Virus record (IMG/VR): IMGVR_UViG_2526164662_000021
Span: 32,574 to 96,573 of that record
Strand: one strand, 5' to 3'
DNA: 64,000 bases
Origin: a virus
Taxonomy: Duplodnaviria; Heunggongvirae; Uroviricota; Caudoviricetes
Positions 10,963 through 63,286 of this stretch are shown piece after piece. The position numbers and the translations under genes are program-made. The number at the start of each line of letters is the position of its first letter. The stretch's first letter is position 1. Under the pieces are notes generated by a model. The model did no database searches. It had not been told where the DNA came from and worked only from the letters and a program-made list of their open reading frames with translations.

Positions 10963-11134
10963 GTATTTTTAAGTCACGAATGCTATCTTTTCGCATCATA
11001 TTGACCTTTTAATCGTTCAGGCTTATAGTTCCGCCGTCGTAGCAAATTCTGCGACCGGGTTTAGCAGCCTGAATGATTGTGCGGACAGCCGCAGATATCC
11101 GATATTGCGGTATTTTTGTGTCCGTAAAACCGCG

Positions 11135-11215
11135 TTACGCCCAAATTATGGTGGGGCGTGATGGGGAGGCTTCGGCCTGCTGGTTTCACAATCGCCAGTC
11201 TGCTAACCCCGTCAC
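11135..11215 (+). ncRNA. c4: c4-like antisense RNA (approximate bounds)
   Basis: Segment CACAATCG...CTGCTAACC is complementary to two repeated target pairs GTTTAGCAGC/TGATTGTG at 11059-11081 and 11228-11266, the second covering the icd ribosome-binding region. Confidence 0.45.
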
Positions 11216-11276
11216 GTCCTGCCACCTGTTTAGCAGCGGGTAGCAGGTTGTTAAACCTGATTGTGAGGCCGTAACT

Positions 11277-12575: not shown

Positions 12576-12615
12576 GAGCAGATCGACCAACCCGATCTGG
12601 ATCGAGTCAGAAAAA

Positions 12616-12632
12616 TTTGCTCTAATAAATTT
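12616..12632 (+). promoter_or_regulatory. C1 operator-like site upstream of kilA-repL
   Basis: tTTGCTCTAATAAATTT. Confidence 0.6.
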
Positions 12633-12701
12633 CGTTTTCTAAGTGCAAAGAATCACCATTCCGAGCTGGTGATTGAAGGTTGATGCAAATTTGGAGAAAA
12701 A

Positions 12702-30826: not shown

Positions 30827-33087
30827 AAGAGCTGTGCTATGGATCTGTTTGCAGTGGAATTGAAGCCGCGAGTATTGCCTGGGAACCGTTGGGTATGCGT
30901 CCGGCGTGGTTTGCTGAAATCGAGCCTTTTCCATCTGCCGTTCTTGCGCACCGCTGGCCCCATGTCGCCAACCTTGGCGACATGACAAAACTTGCCAAAA
31001 AAGTCCTGGCTGGGGAAATCGAATCCCCTGATGTGCTCGTCGGGGGAACACCTTGTCAGGCATTCAGTATCGCTGGATTACGTGGTGGGCTTGATGATGA
31101 GCGTGGCGCGCTAACTTTAAAGTATGTGGAGCTTGCAAATGCAATTGACGACAAACGGGCTGAGTCATTTCTCAAACCGACAGTTATCGTCTGGGAAAAT
31201 GTCCCAGGAGTCCTGTCATCGGCAGATAACGCCTTCGGATGTTTCCTTGCCGGATTGGCTGGAGAAGATGCGCCATTTGAACCAGGTGATCGACCTGAAT
31301 CAGGAAAAAGTAACGCGTTCTGGCGGTGGGATGGCAAAACCGGTTGCCATGCTCCAAAGTGGCCGCAGTGTGGTTGTATTTATGGACCGCAGCGAAAGGT
31401 GGCCTGGAGAATCCTTGATGCCCAATACTTCGGAGTGGCACAACGACGCCGACGCGTGTTTGTTGTCGCAAGTGCTCGAACAGACCTCGATCCCGCAACG
31501 GTACTTTTTGAGTTCGAAGGCGTGCGCCGGAATATTGCGCCGAGCCGAAAAAAGAAGGAAATCGCTTCCGCCATTATTGCAAATGGCGCTGCAATCAGTG
31601 GCGAAAGCCTAAATCCATGCCTACACGCTGACATGCCACCCGGTATGAAATCGACGAAAGCCGTAAACGCTTTCAGGATGGCAGCATTTGGGGAATATAT
31701 TGACGATGAAACCGCATCGACAGTAAAGGCAAGAGATTTTAAAGATGCCACTGACCTTGCCGTTTTTAGCAGCACAGGAGCAGGTTTTTGGTCAGAAGGG
31801 CATGGTACATTGCGGGCACGTGAGCAAGAAAGCCATGAGCATCTTGTTACATTGGCTTTTCCTGAGCGTATGAGCGGTACACAACATGCTGCAACTAAGA
31901 ATACTTCACCATCTCTGATGGCTAAAAATCCAACAGCTGTTTGCTATGAAGTAAGAAACGCAGAAGTAGCTGTCCGCCGTCTTACCCCTGTCGAATGTGA
32001 AAGGCTGCAAGGTTTTCCTGATGGGCATACGTTGATCCCGACGGAAAAGCGTAAAAAAGTTAATTCAGATGAACTGGCATATCTTCGCAATCACTATCCA
32101 GATTTAAGCGAAGAAGAGGCCGCGATGCTTGCAGCTGACGGACCGCGTTACAAAGCGATCGGCAATAGTATGGCAATACCAGTAATGCGCTGGATTGGCG
32201 ATCGGATTACTAAGGCCGTATGTCGGCAGAAAGAAGGAAGTGAAACAAAAGAGCGAAAAGTTAAACCAGCGGCAGAATTCGAACGGTCCATATTCAAATG
32301 GGCTGGTGGAAAATTTGGTGTTCTGGAACAAATCTTTCGCTATTTGCCAGAAGGGAAGCGCCTGATCGAACCTTTTGTCGGTGGCGGAGCTGTCTTCACG
32401 AATGCCGGATACCAGGAAAATCTGCTAAATGATGTGAATGCTGACCTGATTAACTTTTACAAGACTCTGCAACGCGAGGCGCATTCACTTATCACACTGG
32501 CGCATCGGTTTTTCCAGGACTACAACACACAGGAAGGATACCTGGCAGTACGGAATGCGTTTAACAAACAAGTCTATGATGATTTACATCGCGCAGCGGC
32601 GTTTTTGTTCCTGAACCGACATTGTTTTAACGGATTGACGCGTTACAACCAGGCCGGTGAGTTCAATGTCGGTTATGGGAAGTATAAAACTCCGTATTTC
32701 CCATTACAGGAGATGGAAGCCTTCCTCGGTGCGGAAGGGCGTTCTGAGTTTGTATGTGGTGATTTTGCTGCGGTGATTGAAGCTGCCGGAGAAGGAGATG
32801 TCATCTTCTGTGATCCGCCGTATGAACCGCTTCCAAATACAGAGGGATTCACGAACTATTCCGGTCATGACTTTAAGTTTGAAGAGCAAAAACGCCTGGT
32901 GTCTCTGTTGACGGATGCTCATCGCCGAGGTGCAAAGGTTCTCATTACTAACAGTGGCGCGCCAAACATCAGAGAGCTTTATCATGACAATGGCTTCAGA
33001 GTGGAACCTCTTTTTGCCAGACGTTCTGTGTCTTGTAAGGGGGACACTCGAGGTGTTGCTCATGACGTCTTAGGCATATTGCTCTAA
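30823..33087 (+). CDS. dmt: bifunctional DNA methyltransferase (N-terminal C5-cytosine-like, C-terminal Dam-like N6-adenine), 754 aa
   Basis: N-half motifs [11 protein letters not shown] and ENVPG; C-half FVGGGAVF and CDPPY. Confidence 0.85.
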
Positions 33088-34010: not shown

Positions 34011-34138
34011 AGCTCTTAGAAGCAACCAGAAGATAAGCATCTGGCTTCACAACATAAACCGCAGGAACGACCAATAAACGGTAGTCCGTATGGAGAACAC
34101 CCCGTTGAGGAAGAGGCCTGGCCGGAACCGTAACCGGC

Positions 34139-34245
34139 ACTACAACGTTGAGAACACTGGCGTAACGGGGTCATATCCCAATCTACGAATAAATGTTGCG
34201 TTGCAGCGTGACAACCAGTGTTCTCAACGTTGTGGTGAATGCACA
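34139..34245 (+). repeat. hairpin-family element copy
   Basis: Perfect 16-bp stem ACGTTGAGAACACTGG / CCAGTGTTCTCAACGT enclosing CGTAACGGGGTCATATCCCAATCTAC; ends CGTTGTGGTGAATGC. Confidence 0.45.
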
Positions 34246-34350
34246 GGCTGATGTGCCGCAACTACAGTAGTGCGCGCTTTGCGGGGCTTGCTACAACCCT
34301 GTGTCGGAGTTCAGCACCGACCATCACAATTTATTTAGAAACTGTCACCC

Positions 34351-58033: not shown

Positions 58034-59227
58034 GTGACCTGGGACGATCACAAGAAGAATTTTGCTCGCCTGGCGCGAGATGGTGGTTACACCATCGCAC
58101 AGTATGCCGCCGAGTTTAATCTTAACCCTAATACCGCACGTCGTTATCTCCGTGCCTTCAAAGAAGACACCAGGACTGCGGACAGCCGCAAGCCAAATAA
58201 GCCAGTCAGGAAGCCACTAAAAAGCATGATCATTGATCACTCTAATGATCAACATGCAGGTGATCATATTGCGGCTGAAATAGCGGAAAAACAAAGAGTT
58301 AATGCCGTTGTCAGTGCCGCAGTCGAGAATGCGAAGCGCCAAAATAAGCGCATAAATGATCGTTCAGATGATCATGACGTGATCACCCGCGCCCACCGGA
58401 CCTTACGTGATCGCCTGGAACGCGACACCCTGGATGATGATGGTGAACGCTTTGAATTCGAAGCTGGCGATTACCTGATAGATAACGTTGAAGCGCGGAA
58501 GGCCGCGCGCGCTATGTTGCGTCGGTCCGGGGCCGATGTTCTGGAAACCACTCTTCTTGAAAAGTCTCTTTCTCATCTCCTTATGCTGGAGAACGCCAGG
58601 GATACGTGTATTCGCCTGGTGCAGGAAATGCGCGATCAGCAAAAAGACGATGATGAAGGTACTCCGCCTGAATACCGTATCGCGAGCATGCTAAACAGCT
58701 GTTCCGCGCAGATAAGCAGCCTGATCAACACCATTTACAGCATCCGGAATAACTATCGAAAAGAAAGCCGGGAGGCGGAAAAGCACGCTTTGTCTATGGG
58801 GCAAGCTGGCATTGTTAAGCTGGCATACGAACGAAAGCGTGAAAATAACTGGTCAGTGCTGGAAGCGGCTGAATTCATCGAGGCGCATGGAGGAAAAGTG
58901 CCGCCCCTGATGCTGGAGCAAATCAAAGCCGATCTGCGTGCTCCTAAGACCAATACCGATGACGAGGAAAACCAAACAGCATCTGGCGCTCCATCACTTG
59001 AAGATCTGGATAAAATCGCGCGAGAACGGGCCGCCAGCCGCCGCGCTGATGCCGCATTGTGGATTGAGCATCGTAGAGAAGAAATTGCCGATATCGTCGA
59101 TACAGGCGGTTATGGTGATGTCGATGCGGAAGGCATATCAAACGAAGCATGGCTTGAACAGGATCTGGACGAAGACGAGGAGGAAGACGAAGAAGTTACC
59201 CGCAAACTGTACGGGGATGATGATTAA
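58034..59227 (+). CDS. pacA: terminase small subunit PacA, 397 aa (GTG start)
   Basis: 397-aa ORF containing the pac site; immediately upstream of pacB. Confidence 0.85.
58226..58387. other. pac: pac packaging site: two clusters of TGATCA(C/G) hexamers (4 + 3) carrying 7 GATC Dam sites
   Basis: ATGATCATTGATCACTCTAATGATCAACATGCAGGTGATCAT at 58226-58267 and ATGATCGTTCAGATGATCATGACGTGATCAC at 58356-58387. Confidence 0.8.
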
Positions 59228-60711
59228 TGGCCAGAAGTTGCGTAACGGACCCACGTTGGCGCGAGCTGGTGGCGCTATATCGTTATGACTGGATTGCGGC
59301 CGCTGATGTGTTGTTTGGGAAGACACCAACCTGGCAGCAGGATGAGATCATTGAGTCCACGCAGCAGGACGGCAGTTGGACAAGTGTGACCTCCGGCCAT
59401 GGTACTGGTAAGTCGGATATGACGAGTATTATTGCAATACTCTTCATCATGTTTTTCCCCGGCGCTCGCGTCATTCTGGTCGCTAACAAAAGACAGCAAG
59501 TCCTTGATGGTATTTTCAAATACATAAAGAGCAATTGGGCTACTGCTGTTAGCAGATTCCCGTGGTTGTCGAAGTATTTCATTCTTACAGAAACGTCTTT
59601 TTTTGAGGTGACTGGCAAGGGTGTTTGGACAATATTGATAAAGTCCTGTCGCCCCGGAAATGAGGAGGCGTTGGCTGGTGAACACGCCGATCATCTCTTG
59701 TATATCATCGACGAAGCGTCGGGTGTGAGTGATAAAGCATTCAGTGTGATAACAGGTGCGCTGACCGGTAAGGATAACCGTATTCTGCTTCTTTCCCAGC
59801 CTACGCGACCTTCAGGCTATTTCTACGATTCACACCACAGACTAGCTATTCGCCCGGGAAATCCTGATGGATTGTTTACTGCGATAATACTGAATAGTGA
59901 AGAATCTCCGCTTGTAGATGCAAAATTTATACGAGCAAAACTTGCGGAGTATGGCGGTCGTGATAACCCCATGTACATGATCAAAGTACGTGGTGAATTT
60001 CCCAAATCGCAAGATGGCTTTCTTCTTGGTCGTGATGAGGTTGAGCGGGCGACGCGGCGAAAGGTCAAGATTGCCAAAGGATGGGGCTGGGTTGCATGTG
60101 TTGACGTTGCTGGTGGCACAGGACGAGATAAGTCCGTTATTAATATCATGATGGTGTCCGGCCAGCGAAATAAACGCCGTGTAATCAACTATCGTATGCT
60201 GGAATACACAGACGTTACAGAAACGCAGTTAGCCGCCAAGATTTTCGCAGAATGTAACCCAGAACGGTTCCCGAACATAACCATAGCTATTGATGGCGAT
60301 GGCTTGGGGAAATCGACGGCTGATCTGATGTACGAACGCTATGGTATTACCGTCCAGCGTATCCGCTGGGGTAAAAAGATGCACAGCCGTGAAGATAAAA
60401 GCCTTTATTTCGATATGCGCGCTTTCGCGAATATTCAGGCGGCAGAAGCTGTAAAATCAGGGCGTATGCGGCTTGATAAGGGGGCTGCGACTATAGAGGA
60501 AGCATCAAAGATACCGGTCGGGATAAATTCCGCAGGTCAATGGAAGGTGATGTCAAAGGAAGATATGAAGAAAAAACTCAACCTGCACTCACCGGACCAT
60601 TGGGATACATATTGTTTCGCTATGTTGGCGAACTATGTTCCCCAAGATGAAGTGCTTAGCGTCGAAGACGAAGCGCAGGTTGATGAAGCTCTGGCATGGC
60701 TTAATGAGTAA
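59227..60711 (+). CDS. pacB: terminase large subunit PacB, 494 aa
   Basis: Walker A GHGTGKS, Walker [12 protein letters not shown]. Confidence 0.85.
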
Positions 60712-60716
60712 AAAAC

Positions 60717-60733
60717 TTGCTCTAATAAATTGT
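60717..60733 (+). promoter_or_regulatory. C1 operator-like site upstream of second immunity-like module
   Basis: cTTGCTCTAATAAATTg. Confidence 0.55.
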
Positions 60734-60974
60734 GTTTTTTGACTGCCGATGTTACATTGAACCTGACCTCTTGCGCCTTGAGGCATTTTCGGTTTATGCT
60801 TATCAGGCACCTCATTAAAACGGGTGCCGGGATTGGAACCCCGGATAATGTCAAAGGCGACACAGACGCCAAAAGCGTCTTTTTTTGTGTCATGCCATCG
60901 CACGGCCATACGTAGCGTTTAGCTCAGAGATCAATGGTAGTGCTGGCTGGGCTGCCGAAAGGCAGGCCGGTTCC

Positions 60975-61050
60975 CTTTGACGCCGGTAGTTCCAACCCAG
61001 TCAGTGCTACCGCCATTGAGATTGGAACCTCACGCGGTAGCTCCTTAACT
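60975..61050 (+). ncRNA. second c4-like antisense RNA candidate (approximate)
   Basis: GTTCCAACCC and CAGTGCTACCGCC (60987-61012) are complementary to ATTGGAACC and GCGGTAGC in the leader and RBS region of the downstream icd-like gene. Confidence 0.3.
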
Positions 61051-61071
61051 TAGTCAAAGGAGGCTGCCATT

Positions 61072-61293
61072 ATGGCTACTATCCCTACCCCAACTCATCC
61101 TGAATTTATCTGGCGCTTTTACTCCTGCCAGAAACGTCACTATCACTTCGTTATTGCACCGACAGAAGATGAGGCTCGCTCTCAGCTTCCTGATGCACCC
61201 TGTATTTTCTCCGCCCGTTTTTCTACTGATTCGCGCAATTCTCTCAGTTACTGGTGCCTCCCTGTTAACGCTTCTGCTCAGGAGGGACTATGA
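61072..61293 (+). CDS. Icd-like protein, second copy, 73 aa
   Basis: Paralog of 11277-11498 (shared PEFIWRFYSC.K.HYHFVIA.TEDEARSQLPD). Confidence 0.65.
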   Translation: MATIPTPTHPEFIWRFYSCQKRHYHFVIAPTEDEARSQLPDAPCIFSARFSTDSRNSLSYWCLPVNASAQEGL

Positions 61294-62402
61294 GAACGTC
61301 ATTAGTCACCCGTGAAGAGATGATTGAGGCAATTGAACAGCACACTGCCTGTATCAGTACCAGGGATATACCAGGCGTTATGGCCAACTACTTCATGATC
61401 ACCAAACAACTTTACCGGAGAAAGGACAAGAACGCTGTTCACCGCATTCTGTTGTCTGATATCCGCGAATACCTGCTCGAACAGGGTCATCTGAATTACG
61501 CAACCGTCGCAGCCGAAGCACGCAAGGAGGCACACAGAATGAAAGCAACTAACGTTAAATCAGAAAAAATTCATGCACCTTCAGTTCAGGAATCGGAGCT
61601 GGTGGTTGTTCAGAATCAGTCTGATGAAATTCCCGTTCTGGAATGGCTGGGAGTGCGTGTAGTGACAACTGAGACTCTTGCTAAAGGGTATGGGACCGAT
61701 GAAGCGAATATTCGTAAAAATTTGTCTCGCAACCCCGATCGCTTTGAAGAAGGTAAGCATTACTATCTCTTAACTGGTTCAAAATTAAAGGAATTTAAAA
61801 TGCTAGTGACTATTAGTCACTTGGTTAGCAAATATACAAGTCAGGTAATTCTCTGGGCCGAGCGCGGAGCGGCACGCATGTCTAAGATCGTGGACACAAA
61901 TGAAGCGTGGGCATTCTTTGAAAAACTGGAAGACAGCTACTTCCGACAAAAAGAACAGCAACCGATCGCAATCCCCCAGACGCTTCCAGAAGCTCTGCGC
62001 CTGGCTGCCGAACTGGCTGAACAAAAGCAGCTTCTGGAACAGAAAGCCCACCAGCTAAATCAGCAGCTGGTGGCCGCCGCTCCTAAAGTCGATTTTGCCG
62101 ACCGGGTATCAGTAGCTAAAGGGATCCTGATTGGGAATTTTGCAAAGGTTGTTGGACTTAAGCAAAACGCGCTGTTTGCCTGGTTACGGGAGAACGGCAT
62201 CCTGATAGCGTCCGGTGGACGTAAAAATGTGCCGTTCCAGCAGTACATCAATGCGGGGTATTTCACGGTGAAAGAAGTGGTGCTGGATGATGAAGATGGC
62301 TACCAGATACGGTTGACGCCTCAATTAACGGGTAAAGGCCAGCAGTGGTTGACGCGTAAACTGCTCGATGCTGGCTTGTTAAAACCGGTGGCGGCTGAAT
62401 AA
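61290..62402 (+). CDS. Ant-like antirepressor, second copy with different central domain, 370 aa
   Basis: N- and C-terminal regions paralogous to Ant1; central region distinct. Confidence 0.7.
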   Translation: MRTSLVTREEMIEAIEQHTACISTRDIPGVMANYFMITKQLYRRKDKNAVHRILLSDIREYLLEQGHLNYATVAAEARKEAHRMKATNVKSEKIHAPSVQESELVVVQNQSDEIPVLEWLGVRVVTTETLAKGYGTDEANIRKNLSRNPDRFEEGKHYYLLTGSKLKEFKMLVTISHLVSKYTSQVILWAERGAARMSKIVDTNEAWAFFEKLEDSYFRQKEQQPIAIPQTLPEALRLAAELAEQKQLLEQKAHQLNQQLVAAAPKVDFADRVSVAKGILIGNFAKVVGLKQNALFAWLRENGILIASGGRKNVPFQQYINAGYFTVKEVVLDDEDGYQIRLTPQLTGKGQQWLTRKLLDAGLLKPVAAE

Positions 62403-62410
62403 TGGAAGAA

Positions 62411-62432
62411 TGCCCGGTTGATGCCGGGCATA
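62411..62432. terminator. bidirectional terminator between ant-like gene and c1
   Basis: ATGCCCGG-TTGATG-CCGGGCAT. Confidence 0.55.
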
Positions 62433-62434
62433 AT

Positions 62435-63286
62435 TTATTGCGCGCTTTCGGGGTTGTCGTTTACTGGCTGCCCCTTCTTGGTTTTACGGCTGCGTGTAAC
62501 TGATGCGGCTGACTTAACCTTTTTCTCTTCGCGAGTGATGGCAATTTGTTTTTTTACATTTTCAATATCTGCCAGGCGATATATTTTTGCTTGCGGCCAG
62601 CGGTCGCAGATGATCGGTTCTATAGAGTCATAAAGGCTAAATTTTGCTTTCTCGAATTCACCGTTGATGATAATTCCATCACGGAGAGTTTCATCGCAGA
62701 TAAACACACCACATAGCGGCACATGGTAACTAACTGATTTACCATCATTGTAGTTAGGGCTACTAGAAATGTAATGGACGCGCAGCATTGTTTCGCTAAA
62801 GCCGTGTACGCGCATACGGAATTTTTCATCCTCCGGGTACTGCTTCATTAGCTCTTTTGTTGCTTCCAGGTTCTCTATGTATTTCGCACTGTGCTCATTG
62901 ATCCCCGCGCTTTTCTGGATGCGAATGTCCTTATCAATCAGATGAATAATGCGGCCAGCGGTCATGTTGACGCTGTTCACAGCTTCTGTCTGATAAGTCG
63001 TAACCTTACGCACACCGCGAAGGATGTTAGGCACTGGATATAAAATAGTCTTTGGGATATTGAGGTCTGGGTACTGTTCCAGTTCCCGCGCCATTAAAGT
63101 CCATTTATCAATTTCAGCCTGAATGCTGTCCGTTTCTTTGAACGGCAGAACGACAACCGGGCGAACAGGACGACCGTCGCTGGCGGCATCAACGTGTTGG
63201 GCGCGTGCAACAGCTTTTTTTAGAAAGAGATCCCTGAAGCTGACGAACTCCTGGTACAGTTGTTCGCCGTAGACATAATTTATCAT
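62435..63286 (-). CDS. c1: primary immunity repressor C1-like, 283 aa
   Basis: 283-aa ORF downstream of coi; operator copies flank it. Confidence 0.75.
   Translation of the reverse strand: MINYVYGEQLYQEFVSFRDLFLKKAVARAQHVDAASDGRPVRPVVVLPFKETDSIQAEIDKWTLMARELEQYPDLNIPKTILYPVPNILRGVRKVTTYQTEAVNSVNMTAGRIIHLIDKDIRIQKSAGINEHSAKYIENLEATKELMKQYPEDEKFRMRVHGFSETMLRVHYISSSPNYNDGKSVSYHVPLCGVFICDETLRDGIIINGEFEKAKFSLYDSIEPIICDRWPQAKIYRLADIENVKKQIAITREEKKVKSAASVTRSRKTKKGQPVNDNPESAQ

Follow-up and report, generated by a model that had tools for sequence, protein, structure and literature searches.

What occupies the interval between pacB and c1 in P1-like phage-plasmids, and could it act in immunity? The question is raised by a 64,000-nt stretch of DNA (IMG/VR record IMGVR_UViG_2526164662_000021, positions 32,574 to 96,573; hereafter the window), which belongs to a P1-like phage-plasmid. 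Here, 1,723 bp lie between the stop codons of pacB (60711) and c1 (62435), versus 24 bp in P1, where, as an earlier note on this DNA had stated, pacB is followed directly by c1. The note had also proposed that the additional segment (hereafter the module) holds a second copy of the c4-icd-ant architecture of the immunity I (ImmI) region, and every element it listed was recovered, at or within a few bases of where it had been placed. We consider the module likely to be a functional second ImmI-type operon. This assignment builds on computed evidence: the parts of the module, their homology, the complementarity of the RNA segments, co-variation among natural copies, purifying selection, and distribution. 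The module occupies the pacB-c1 site and not sim-kilA/repL, and the canonical ImmI copy (10.9 to 12.5 kb) is in its usual position.

Elements of the module

The module comprises the following elements, all on the plus strand, and as a set they are far beyond chance expectation.

60716-60732: C1-operator-like site CTTGCTCTAATAAATTG, with 15 of 17 matches to the consensus ATTGCTCTAATAAATTT
60730-60758: putative C1-controlled promoter (TTGTGT, 17-nt spacer, TACATT), whose -35 hexamer shares bases with the operator 3' end
60771-60800: putative constitutive promoter (TTGCGC, 18-nt spacer, TATGCT), the positional homologue of Gifsy-1 PisrK
60807-60885: isrK-family leader RNA (RF01394)
60832-60839: a1, in a hairpin loop of the folded leader
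60850-60857: b1, in the leader
60864-60880: stem of the leader intrinsic terminator, followed by a T run (terminator scan)
60930-61017: C4-family antisense RNA (RF01695)
60974-60981: b' CCUUUGAC, in the loop of the second C4 hairpin
60989-60996: a' GUUCCAAC, in the C4 junction segment
61021-61063: downstream target region, holding a2, b2, and the icd Shine-Dalgarno sequence
61021-61028: a2, complementary to a'
61053-61060: b2, complementary to b'
61057-61063: icd Shine-Dalgarno sequence AAGGAGG, overlapped by b2
61072-61293: icd paralog, 73 amino acids (aa)
61290-62402: Ant paralog, 370 aa, with its start overlapping the icd stop (ATGA)
61524-61541: internal Ant2-type start, AAGGAGG (61524-61530), eight nucleotides, and ATG (61539)

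At Rfam gathering thresholds (45 bits for C4, 50 bits for isrK), the C4-family RNA is called at full length with 77.1 bits and the isrK-family leader with 62.6 bits. The c4-a1b1 covariance model scores only 23.1 bits on this leader, under its cut-off of 46.7, and isrK matches instead. Folded alone, the module C4 adopts the family structure (minimum free energy, -46.5 kcal/mol; z-score, -5.0) and leaves a' and b' single stranded, each of them complementary to one upstream repeat (a1 or b1) and one downstream repeat (a2 or b2). The segment that the earlier note had read as a c4-like RNA with its targets is borne out by these calls. In a leader transcript that reads through the terminator, the predicted fold pairs a1/b1 with a'/b' in cis.

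The canonical copy has its own Rfam matches to C4 (69.6 bits, 11144-11229) and c4-a1b1 (11023-11075), and its control region (10946-11270) is of P7 type, with a = UUAGCAG and b = GAUUGUG. P1 and P7 differ by 2-nt swaps in each of a and b, mirrored in a'/b', and are experimentally heteroimmune. Summed short-duplex energies, a crude measure by which one noncognate pair scored like a cognate one through a shifted register, lie between -22 and -27 kcal/mol for cognate duplexes (approximately -22 for the window module), at approximately -15 kcal/mol between P1 and P7, and at only -5 to -10 kcal/mol between the module and the canonical copy, in both directions. Because the module-canonical duplexes are far weaker than the cognate ones, the module and the resident P7-type copy are, by sequence, orthogonal in RNA specificity, the second antisense specificity that the note had anticipated.

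The backbone of the window is itself a P1/P7 mosaic, with a canonical ImmI copy of P7 specificity and a wild-type P1 C1. The C1 of the window is identical to P1 C1.100 at 282 of 283 positions and, since the sole difference is the c1.100 position, corresponds to wild-type P1 C1.

Two frames in the leader region, of 61 and 39 aa ('hypothetical' and 'ash family'), were rejected as proteins, as they coincide with the two RNA genes. The Prokaryotic Genome Annotation Pipeline (PGAP) calls an 'ash family protein' at 60934-61053 (+) in the window and also at 4218-4337 in locus L007. The 39-codon frame of the window matches Pfam Phage_ASH (PF10554) at 32.2 bits versus a cut-off of 26 and coincides with the C4 gene (60930-61017); the Phage_ASH family, or at least these members, probably represents a translated RNA gene and not a protein.

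Sites resembling the C1 operator, with up to three mismatches, number 15 in the window versus 0.32 expected by chance. The module operator, found as the note had described it, is kept in all five P1-like copies aligned and is absent from D6. A 24-mer containing it has exact matches in 51 IMG/VR contigs, with the pacB end immediately upstream in all of them. The layout at 60730-60758 equals that of the annotated P1 Op51/P51a within 1 nt, with a weak match that was read by eye. The hexamers at 60771-60800 are kept in D6 (TTGCGC-N18-TATATT) and align with TTGACA-N18-TATATT of Gifsy-1, and the start predicted for this promoter, at approximately 60807, is position 1 of the isrK model. Both are candidate promoters, proposed from layout homology only. 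As a separate observation, the operator region at 60711-60746 is 83% identical over 36 nt to 12611-12646, upstream of kilA, where the operator site is TTTGCTCTAATAAATTT (12616-12632); this likeness hints at the origin of the C1-responsive front end of the module.

The 73-aa Icd paralog reported in the note is 81% identical to canonical Icd and matches both NCBIfam phage_ICD_like (49.8 bits) and, over its full length, phrog_1426; a Pfam search returned no match for Icd or C1. Its ratio of nonsynonymous to synonymous substitution (dN/dS) is 0.08 across 27 variants. The length of 73 aa and the ATGA overlap with ant are maintained in 47 of the 48 copies that can be read to the icd stop, and the overlap suggests that translation of icd and ant is coupled.

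The Ant paralog matches phrog_63 'anti-repressor Ant' end to end (441 bits), and Pfam assigns ORF6N to residues 117-200 and ANT/KilAC to residues 258-359. Compared with Ant1, the N terminus (residues ~1-87) is approximately 65% identical and the C terminus (~226-370, approximately 145 residues) approximately 93% identical. The centre aligns as unrelated to that of Ant1, which has no Pfam match. The alignment and the ORF6N call agree with the Ant1-like ends and different centre that the note had described. The arrangement AAGGAGG-N8-ATG occurs likewise at the canonical ant2 start, and the internal start is conserved. The dN/dS ratio equals 0.10 in the N-terminal part, 0.06 in the C-terminal part, and 0.32 in the centre (dS, 0.44). 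Among 41 ant copies readable to the stop, 31 are intact, with 364 to 372 aa, and the remainder are truncated or altered. A sequence search of the PDB with the Ant paralog gave only a spurious match to ribosomal protein L9 (E = 0.002) and no solved relative.

Specificity classes and distribution

Control regions of the module were compared in 54 copies at the pacB-c1 site, drawn from the IMG/VR contigs matching the 24-mer, the window, RCS47, JL22, 673R5, and one plasmid copy. Where the downstream sequence reaches far enough (32 IMG/VR loci), the c1 end lies approximately 1.7 kb on in 28. The 54 copies fall into five a/b specificity classes.

GGAAC / GUCAAAGG: 5 copies, including the window
GAGAC / GCAAAAGG: 11 copies, including JL22; D6, outside the set, has the same a/b type
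GGAAC / GCAAAAGG: 7 copies, no named example
GAGAC / GUCAAAGG: 6 copies, including RCS47
GGCCU / GUCUAAGG: 25 copies, including 673R5

In all 54 copies, a1, a', and a2 are concordant with one another, as are b1, b', and b2, with zero discordant copies; pairing in the GGCCU/GUCUAAGG class includes two G·U pairs. Across the other four classes, which are closely related (29 copies), 26 sites of the 339-nt control region are polymorphic, and 12 of these coincide exactly with the two variable nucleotides of each element, six elements in all (odds ratio, 6.6; p = 4e-5). The class differences are the same in kind as the 2-nt swaps between P1 and P7. Such co-variation is strong sequence evidence that the pairing is functional and that its specificity is being diversified.

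Several observations on these copies stand beside this result. All four combinations of a type and b type exist despite the interleaved order a1 b1 b' a' a2 b2, and a recombination route to them needs three crossovers within intervals of 12 to 30 nt. Judged from the sequences, gene conversion or recurrent coordinated mutation seems to be needed for the four combinations. The ORF6N core of the Ant paralog (residues ~125-205; window positions 61662-61904) is present as at least six alleles with 43 to 78% identity, flanked by nearly invariant N- and C-terminal parts and shuffled relative to RNA class. One contig (L026, IMGVR_UViG_2698536372_000019) carries on its reverse strand two copies of the module operator and leader, at approximately 7741 and 9307, 1,566 bp apart; both are of the GGCCU/GUCUAAGG class, and a 33-nt repeat of the end of pacB comes before the second, which points to a tandem duplication of the module or to an artefact of assembly. 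In another (L054, IMGVR_UViG_646311924_000007, 6862 onward), the c1 end lies approximately 3.0 kb past the operator and ant stops at 80 aa, probably reflecting an insertion of approximately 1.3 kb.

The note had named routine presence of the module at this position in P1-like reference genomes as evidence against its reading, and as far as novelty is concerned, the distribution shows just that. The module is routine at the pacB-c1 site of P1-like genomes, including the phages RCS47 (where it is annotated 'ant'), JL22 ('Roi'), and vB_EcoM-673R5. Counting a record as a carrier when at least 80% of the module is covered in it, we found the module in 301 PLSDB plasmid records, compared to 314 with the direct P1-type pacB-c1 junction, among 703 with pacB/c1 sequence. 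The corresponding figures for complete Escherichia coli genomes in RefSeq are 287 with the module and 308 with the P1-type junction, among 700 of 5,426 genomes (approximately 13%) with pacB/c1 sequence. Approximately 4 in 10 natural P1-like plasmids carry the module, and the two states are about equally common. In some 15% of the records with pacB/c1 sequence, the P1-type junction is absent and less than 80% of the module is covered, and the pacB/leader junction of the window type is at least 80% covered in only 165 records versus 301 for the whole module; other variants or cargo may be present at the site.

An 'ant' insertion between pacB and c1 was mentioned together with RCS47 by Venturini et al. 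in 2019 (PMC6906374), and a D6-like plasmid with two c4/icd regions has been reported (PMC6799933). Our literature search found no paper describing the RNAs of the module, a second specificity, or the classes. The module is a common yet previously uncharacterised member of the C4/ImmI kind and no rarity. What the present analysis adds to the annotation is the orthogonality to the resident copy, the five co-varying classes, the hypervariable ORF6N cassette, and the link to IsrK.

In alignment to P1, the divergent stretch is bounded exactly by the stop codons of pacB and c1. Insertion scars were looked for at the module borders (target duplication, insertion sequence ends, and repeats), and none were present. 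Because there are no border scars and the divergence is confined to the interval from stop codon to stop codon, gain and loss of the module are indistinguishable, and the description of it as 'acquired' was not upheld, the module and P1-type states being about equally common. The module is mosaic, with a 5' part that is approximately 83 to 92% identical to D6 and a 3' part of 420 bp (the ant end) that is 81 to 86% identical to P1/P7 ant1. Its surroundings in the window, together with the hairpin at its downstream end, are as follows.

58034-59227, rightward: pacA
59227-60711, rightward: pacB
62410-62431, strand unspecified: hairpin ATGCCCGG-TTGATG-CCGGGCAT, a terminator-like scan match between the convergent ant paralog and c1
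62435-63286, leftward (minus strand): c1, with coi likewise leftward

From its sequence and placement, the hairpin is likely a two-way terminator.

Proposed regulation and alternative explanations

In P1, C4 is excised from its precursor by RNase P and blocks the icd ribosome-binding site, so that ant is not expressed. For the module, we infer a comparable scheme with regard to its promoters, RNA processing, the role of the leader as a sponge, and the action of its Ant paralog on C1. Transcription would start at the C1-repressible promoter adjoining the operator and at the weak constitutive promoter homologous in position to PisrK. Most transcripts would end at the leader terminator, giving an isrK-like RNA of approximately 80 nt that holds a1 and b1, and those reading through would hold the C4-family RNA, to be cut from its precursor. 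The mature C4 would then pair through a'/b' with a2/b2 on the mRNA and cover the icd ribosome-binding site; icd would go untranslated, and the translationally coupled ant paralog would not be made. Repression could fail upon infection of a cell that lacks the matching C4 RNA, or when excess leader RNA titrates C4, as IsrK does in Gifsy-1. The Ant paralog would then be produced, probably as two forms of different length (long and short), as is the case in P1, and would inactivate C1. That last step is suggested by the sequence similarity of its N and C termini to Ant1, and activation of Ant translation in trans by the short leader is proposed by analogy to Gifsy-1, the only system in which it has been shown. 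With no pairing between a and b of the module and the P7-type resident copy, the phage-plasmid would have two independent RNA locks. It would be protected against Ant expression from two specificity classes, and any lysogen missing either class would have its immunity broken by such an element.

Several points weigh against this account. Both promoters are weak consensus matches, and a consensus promoter scan of 60650-62500 called nothing in the control region. Short-duplex energies suggest cross-class pairing of a GAGAC-type C4 on a GGAAC-type target, and the five RNA classes are by this measure not necessarily all mutually orthogonal. Approximately one-quarter of the ant copies are shortened or broken, hence Ant is perhaps dispensable, and the target of the Ant paralog could differ from C1, given its variable ORF6N centre that is not of Ant1 type.

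The last two points lead to explanations of their own. The operon may be real while the Ant paralog, as an ORF6N (KilA-N-like, DNA-binding) protein, acts on a target other than C1, either the repressor of another prophage (cross-induction) or DNA, in the manner of a Roi/Rha-type lytic regulator. We regard this as unlikely, if still worth keeping in view. It would account for a centre unrelated to that of Ant1 with an ORF6N domain in at least six alleles shuffled against RNA class, for the name 'Roi, DNA binding protein' chosen by annotators, and for the nearness of leader and C4 to the D6 and Shiga toxin (Stx)/phiP27 cassettes that precede Rha/Ant-type regulators. It fits poorly with the Ant1-like ends, which are under strong purifying selection, with the placement of the operon under a C1 operator and adjoining c1, and with the end-to-end match to phrog_63, which is better than that of Ant1 itself. 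There is a smaller chance that the module serves mainly as an immunity cassette in which Ant is dispensable, a constitutive C4 silencing the ant of incoming relatives of the same RNA class while icd and ant are carried along or decay. Ant is truncated or altered in 10 of 41 copies with leader, C4, and icd intact, one 98%-identical copy has an ant stop at 184 aa, and the strongest signature of selection is in the RNA elements. On the other side, three-quarters of the ant copies are intact, the conserved parts have dN/dS ratios of 0.06 to 0.10, and the ATGA coupling and internal start are kept. This explanation is compatible with a functional second ImmI-type operon and no exclusive alternative to it.

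The mosaic make-up of the module would also be expected if a D6-like ImmI region and P1 ant had recombined and left an inert remnant without function today. That we hold to be very improbable: co-variation is perfect at three sites per element in five classes, the coding regions are under purifying selection, and hundreds of plasmids carry the module at one and the same site.

The reading as a functional second ImmI-type operon can be extended, tentatively and with considerable doubt, to a rapidly diversifying second immunity lock by which natural P1-like phage-plasmids would be divided into heteroimmunity groups. At least five RNA specificities, arisen through coordinated 2-nt changes at three interleaved sites, would be combined with at least six ORF6N alleles of the antirepressor, and the isrK-like leader would serve as a C4 sponge and thereby make the switch bistable. 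If true, the module would govern displacement, induction, and coexistence among P1-like plasmids, many of which carry resistance genes. These phage-plasmids occur commonly in E. coli and spread resistance genes. If the second antirepressor operon found in approximately 4 in 10 of them has several distinct specificities, immunity and cross-induction are more complex than in the textbook view from P1 and P7, and the specificity classes lead to a direct, testable prediction of mutual immunity.

Comparison with known systems

The module shares its overall order with P1/P7 ImmI (Op51/P51a-P51b, a1 b1, c4, a2 b2, icd, ant1/ant2), with an operator-to-C4 spacing of 214 nt versus 198 nt in the canonical copy. 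Both have a C1 operator, a C4-family RNA with targets on either side, b2 over the icd ribosome-binding site, a 73-aa icd, the ATGA overlap, a nested Ant2-type start, and a KilAC end. The module differs in that its leader is of isrK type and not c4-a1b1, its a and b sequences bear no relation to the P1 and P7 ones, its Ant centre is ORF6N, and it is a second copy within one genome.

Its closest DNA relative across isrK, C4, and 5' icd is the ImmI-like region of D6 (orf83, icd; orf82, antirepressor), at 91.5% identity over 328 bp. Rfam calls isrK and C4 in D6 as well, and the a/b type is that of the JL22 class. In contrast to the module, D6 has no upstream C1 operator, encodes a Rha-type antirepressor without KilAC, and presents a different genomic context. 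The unit of isrK plus C4 also precedes Ant/Rha-type genes in many Stx-converting phages and phiP27.

Phage P4 immunity (CI RNA; seqA, seqB, and seqC) is similar in using a processed RNA for which repeats on both its upstream and its downstream side serve as pairing partners, and the C4 part of the module aligns to the CI region at 73.7% over approximately 155 nt. However, the P4 RNA terminates transcription of the replication operon, P4 immunity has no icd/ant, and no P4 genes are found at the module.

The Gifsy-1 isrK-'orf45'(STnc1160)-anrP region of Salmonella resembles the module in having an isrK leader that ends in an intrinsic terminator and is directly followed by a C4-family RNA, an antirepressor downstream, the a1/b1, a'/b', a2/b2 arrangement in which b2 covers the ribosome-binding site of the following gene, and a promoter in the homologous position. 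It differs in lacking icd and a C1 operator, in having b2 placed over the start of anrP, and in encoding a different antirepressor protein; it belongs to a lambdoid prophage with antQ and isrJ as neighbours and has yet another a/b sequence, whereas the module has pacB upstream. In the Gifsy-1 sequence analysed here (NC_010392), Rfam detects a C4-family RNA of 69 bits at 34131-34214 (-), between isrK and anrP, at the site of 'orf45' and of STnc1160, the processed RNA of approximately 80 nt in the IsrK paper; in the leader (34240-34329, -), the isrK and c4-a1b1 models overlap. By these matches, the Gifsy-1 IsrK system appears to be an ImmI-type cassette that lacks icd. For Gifsy-1, termination at the leader with partial read-through, processing of the read-through RNA to approximately 80 nt, an inactive 'structure A' in which the leader is paired to the downstream RNA, and activation of antirepressor translation by the short IsrK in trans have been described, and IsrK has been called a structural homologue of P4 SeqA (Hershko-Shalev et al. 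2016, PMC4825925). The cis pairing of a1/b1 with a'/b' predicted for the module leader mirrors this 'structure A'. The IsrK paper makes no mention of C4 or P1. The comparison ties Gifsy-1 IsrK to the C4/ImmI family, a link absent from that paper, and by analogy points to a possible function of the a1/b1 repeats of P1, which have long lacked an explanation.

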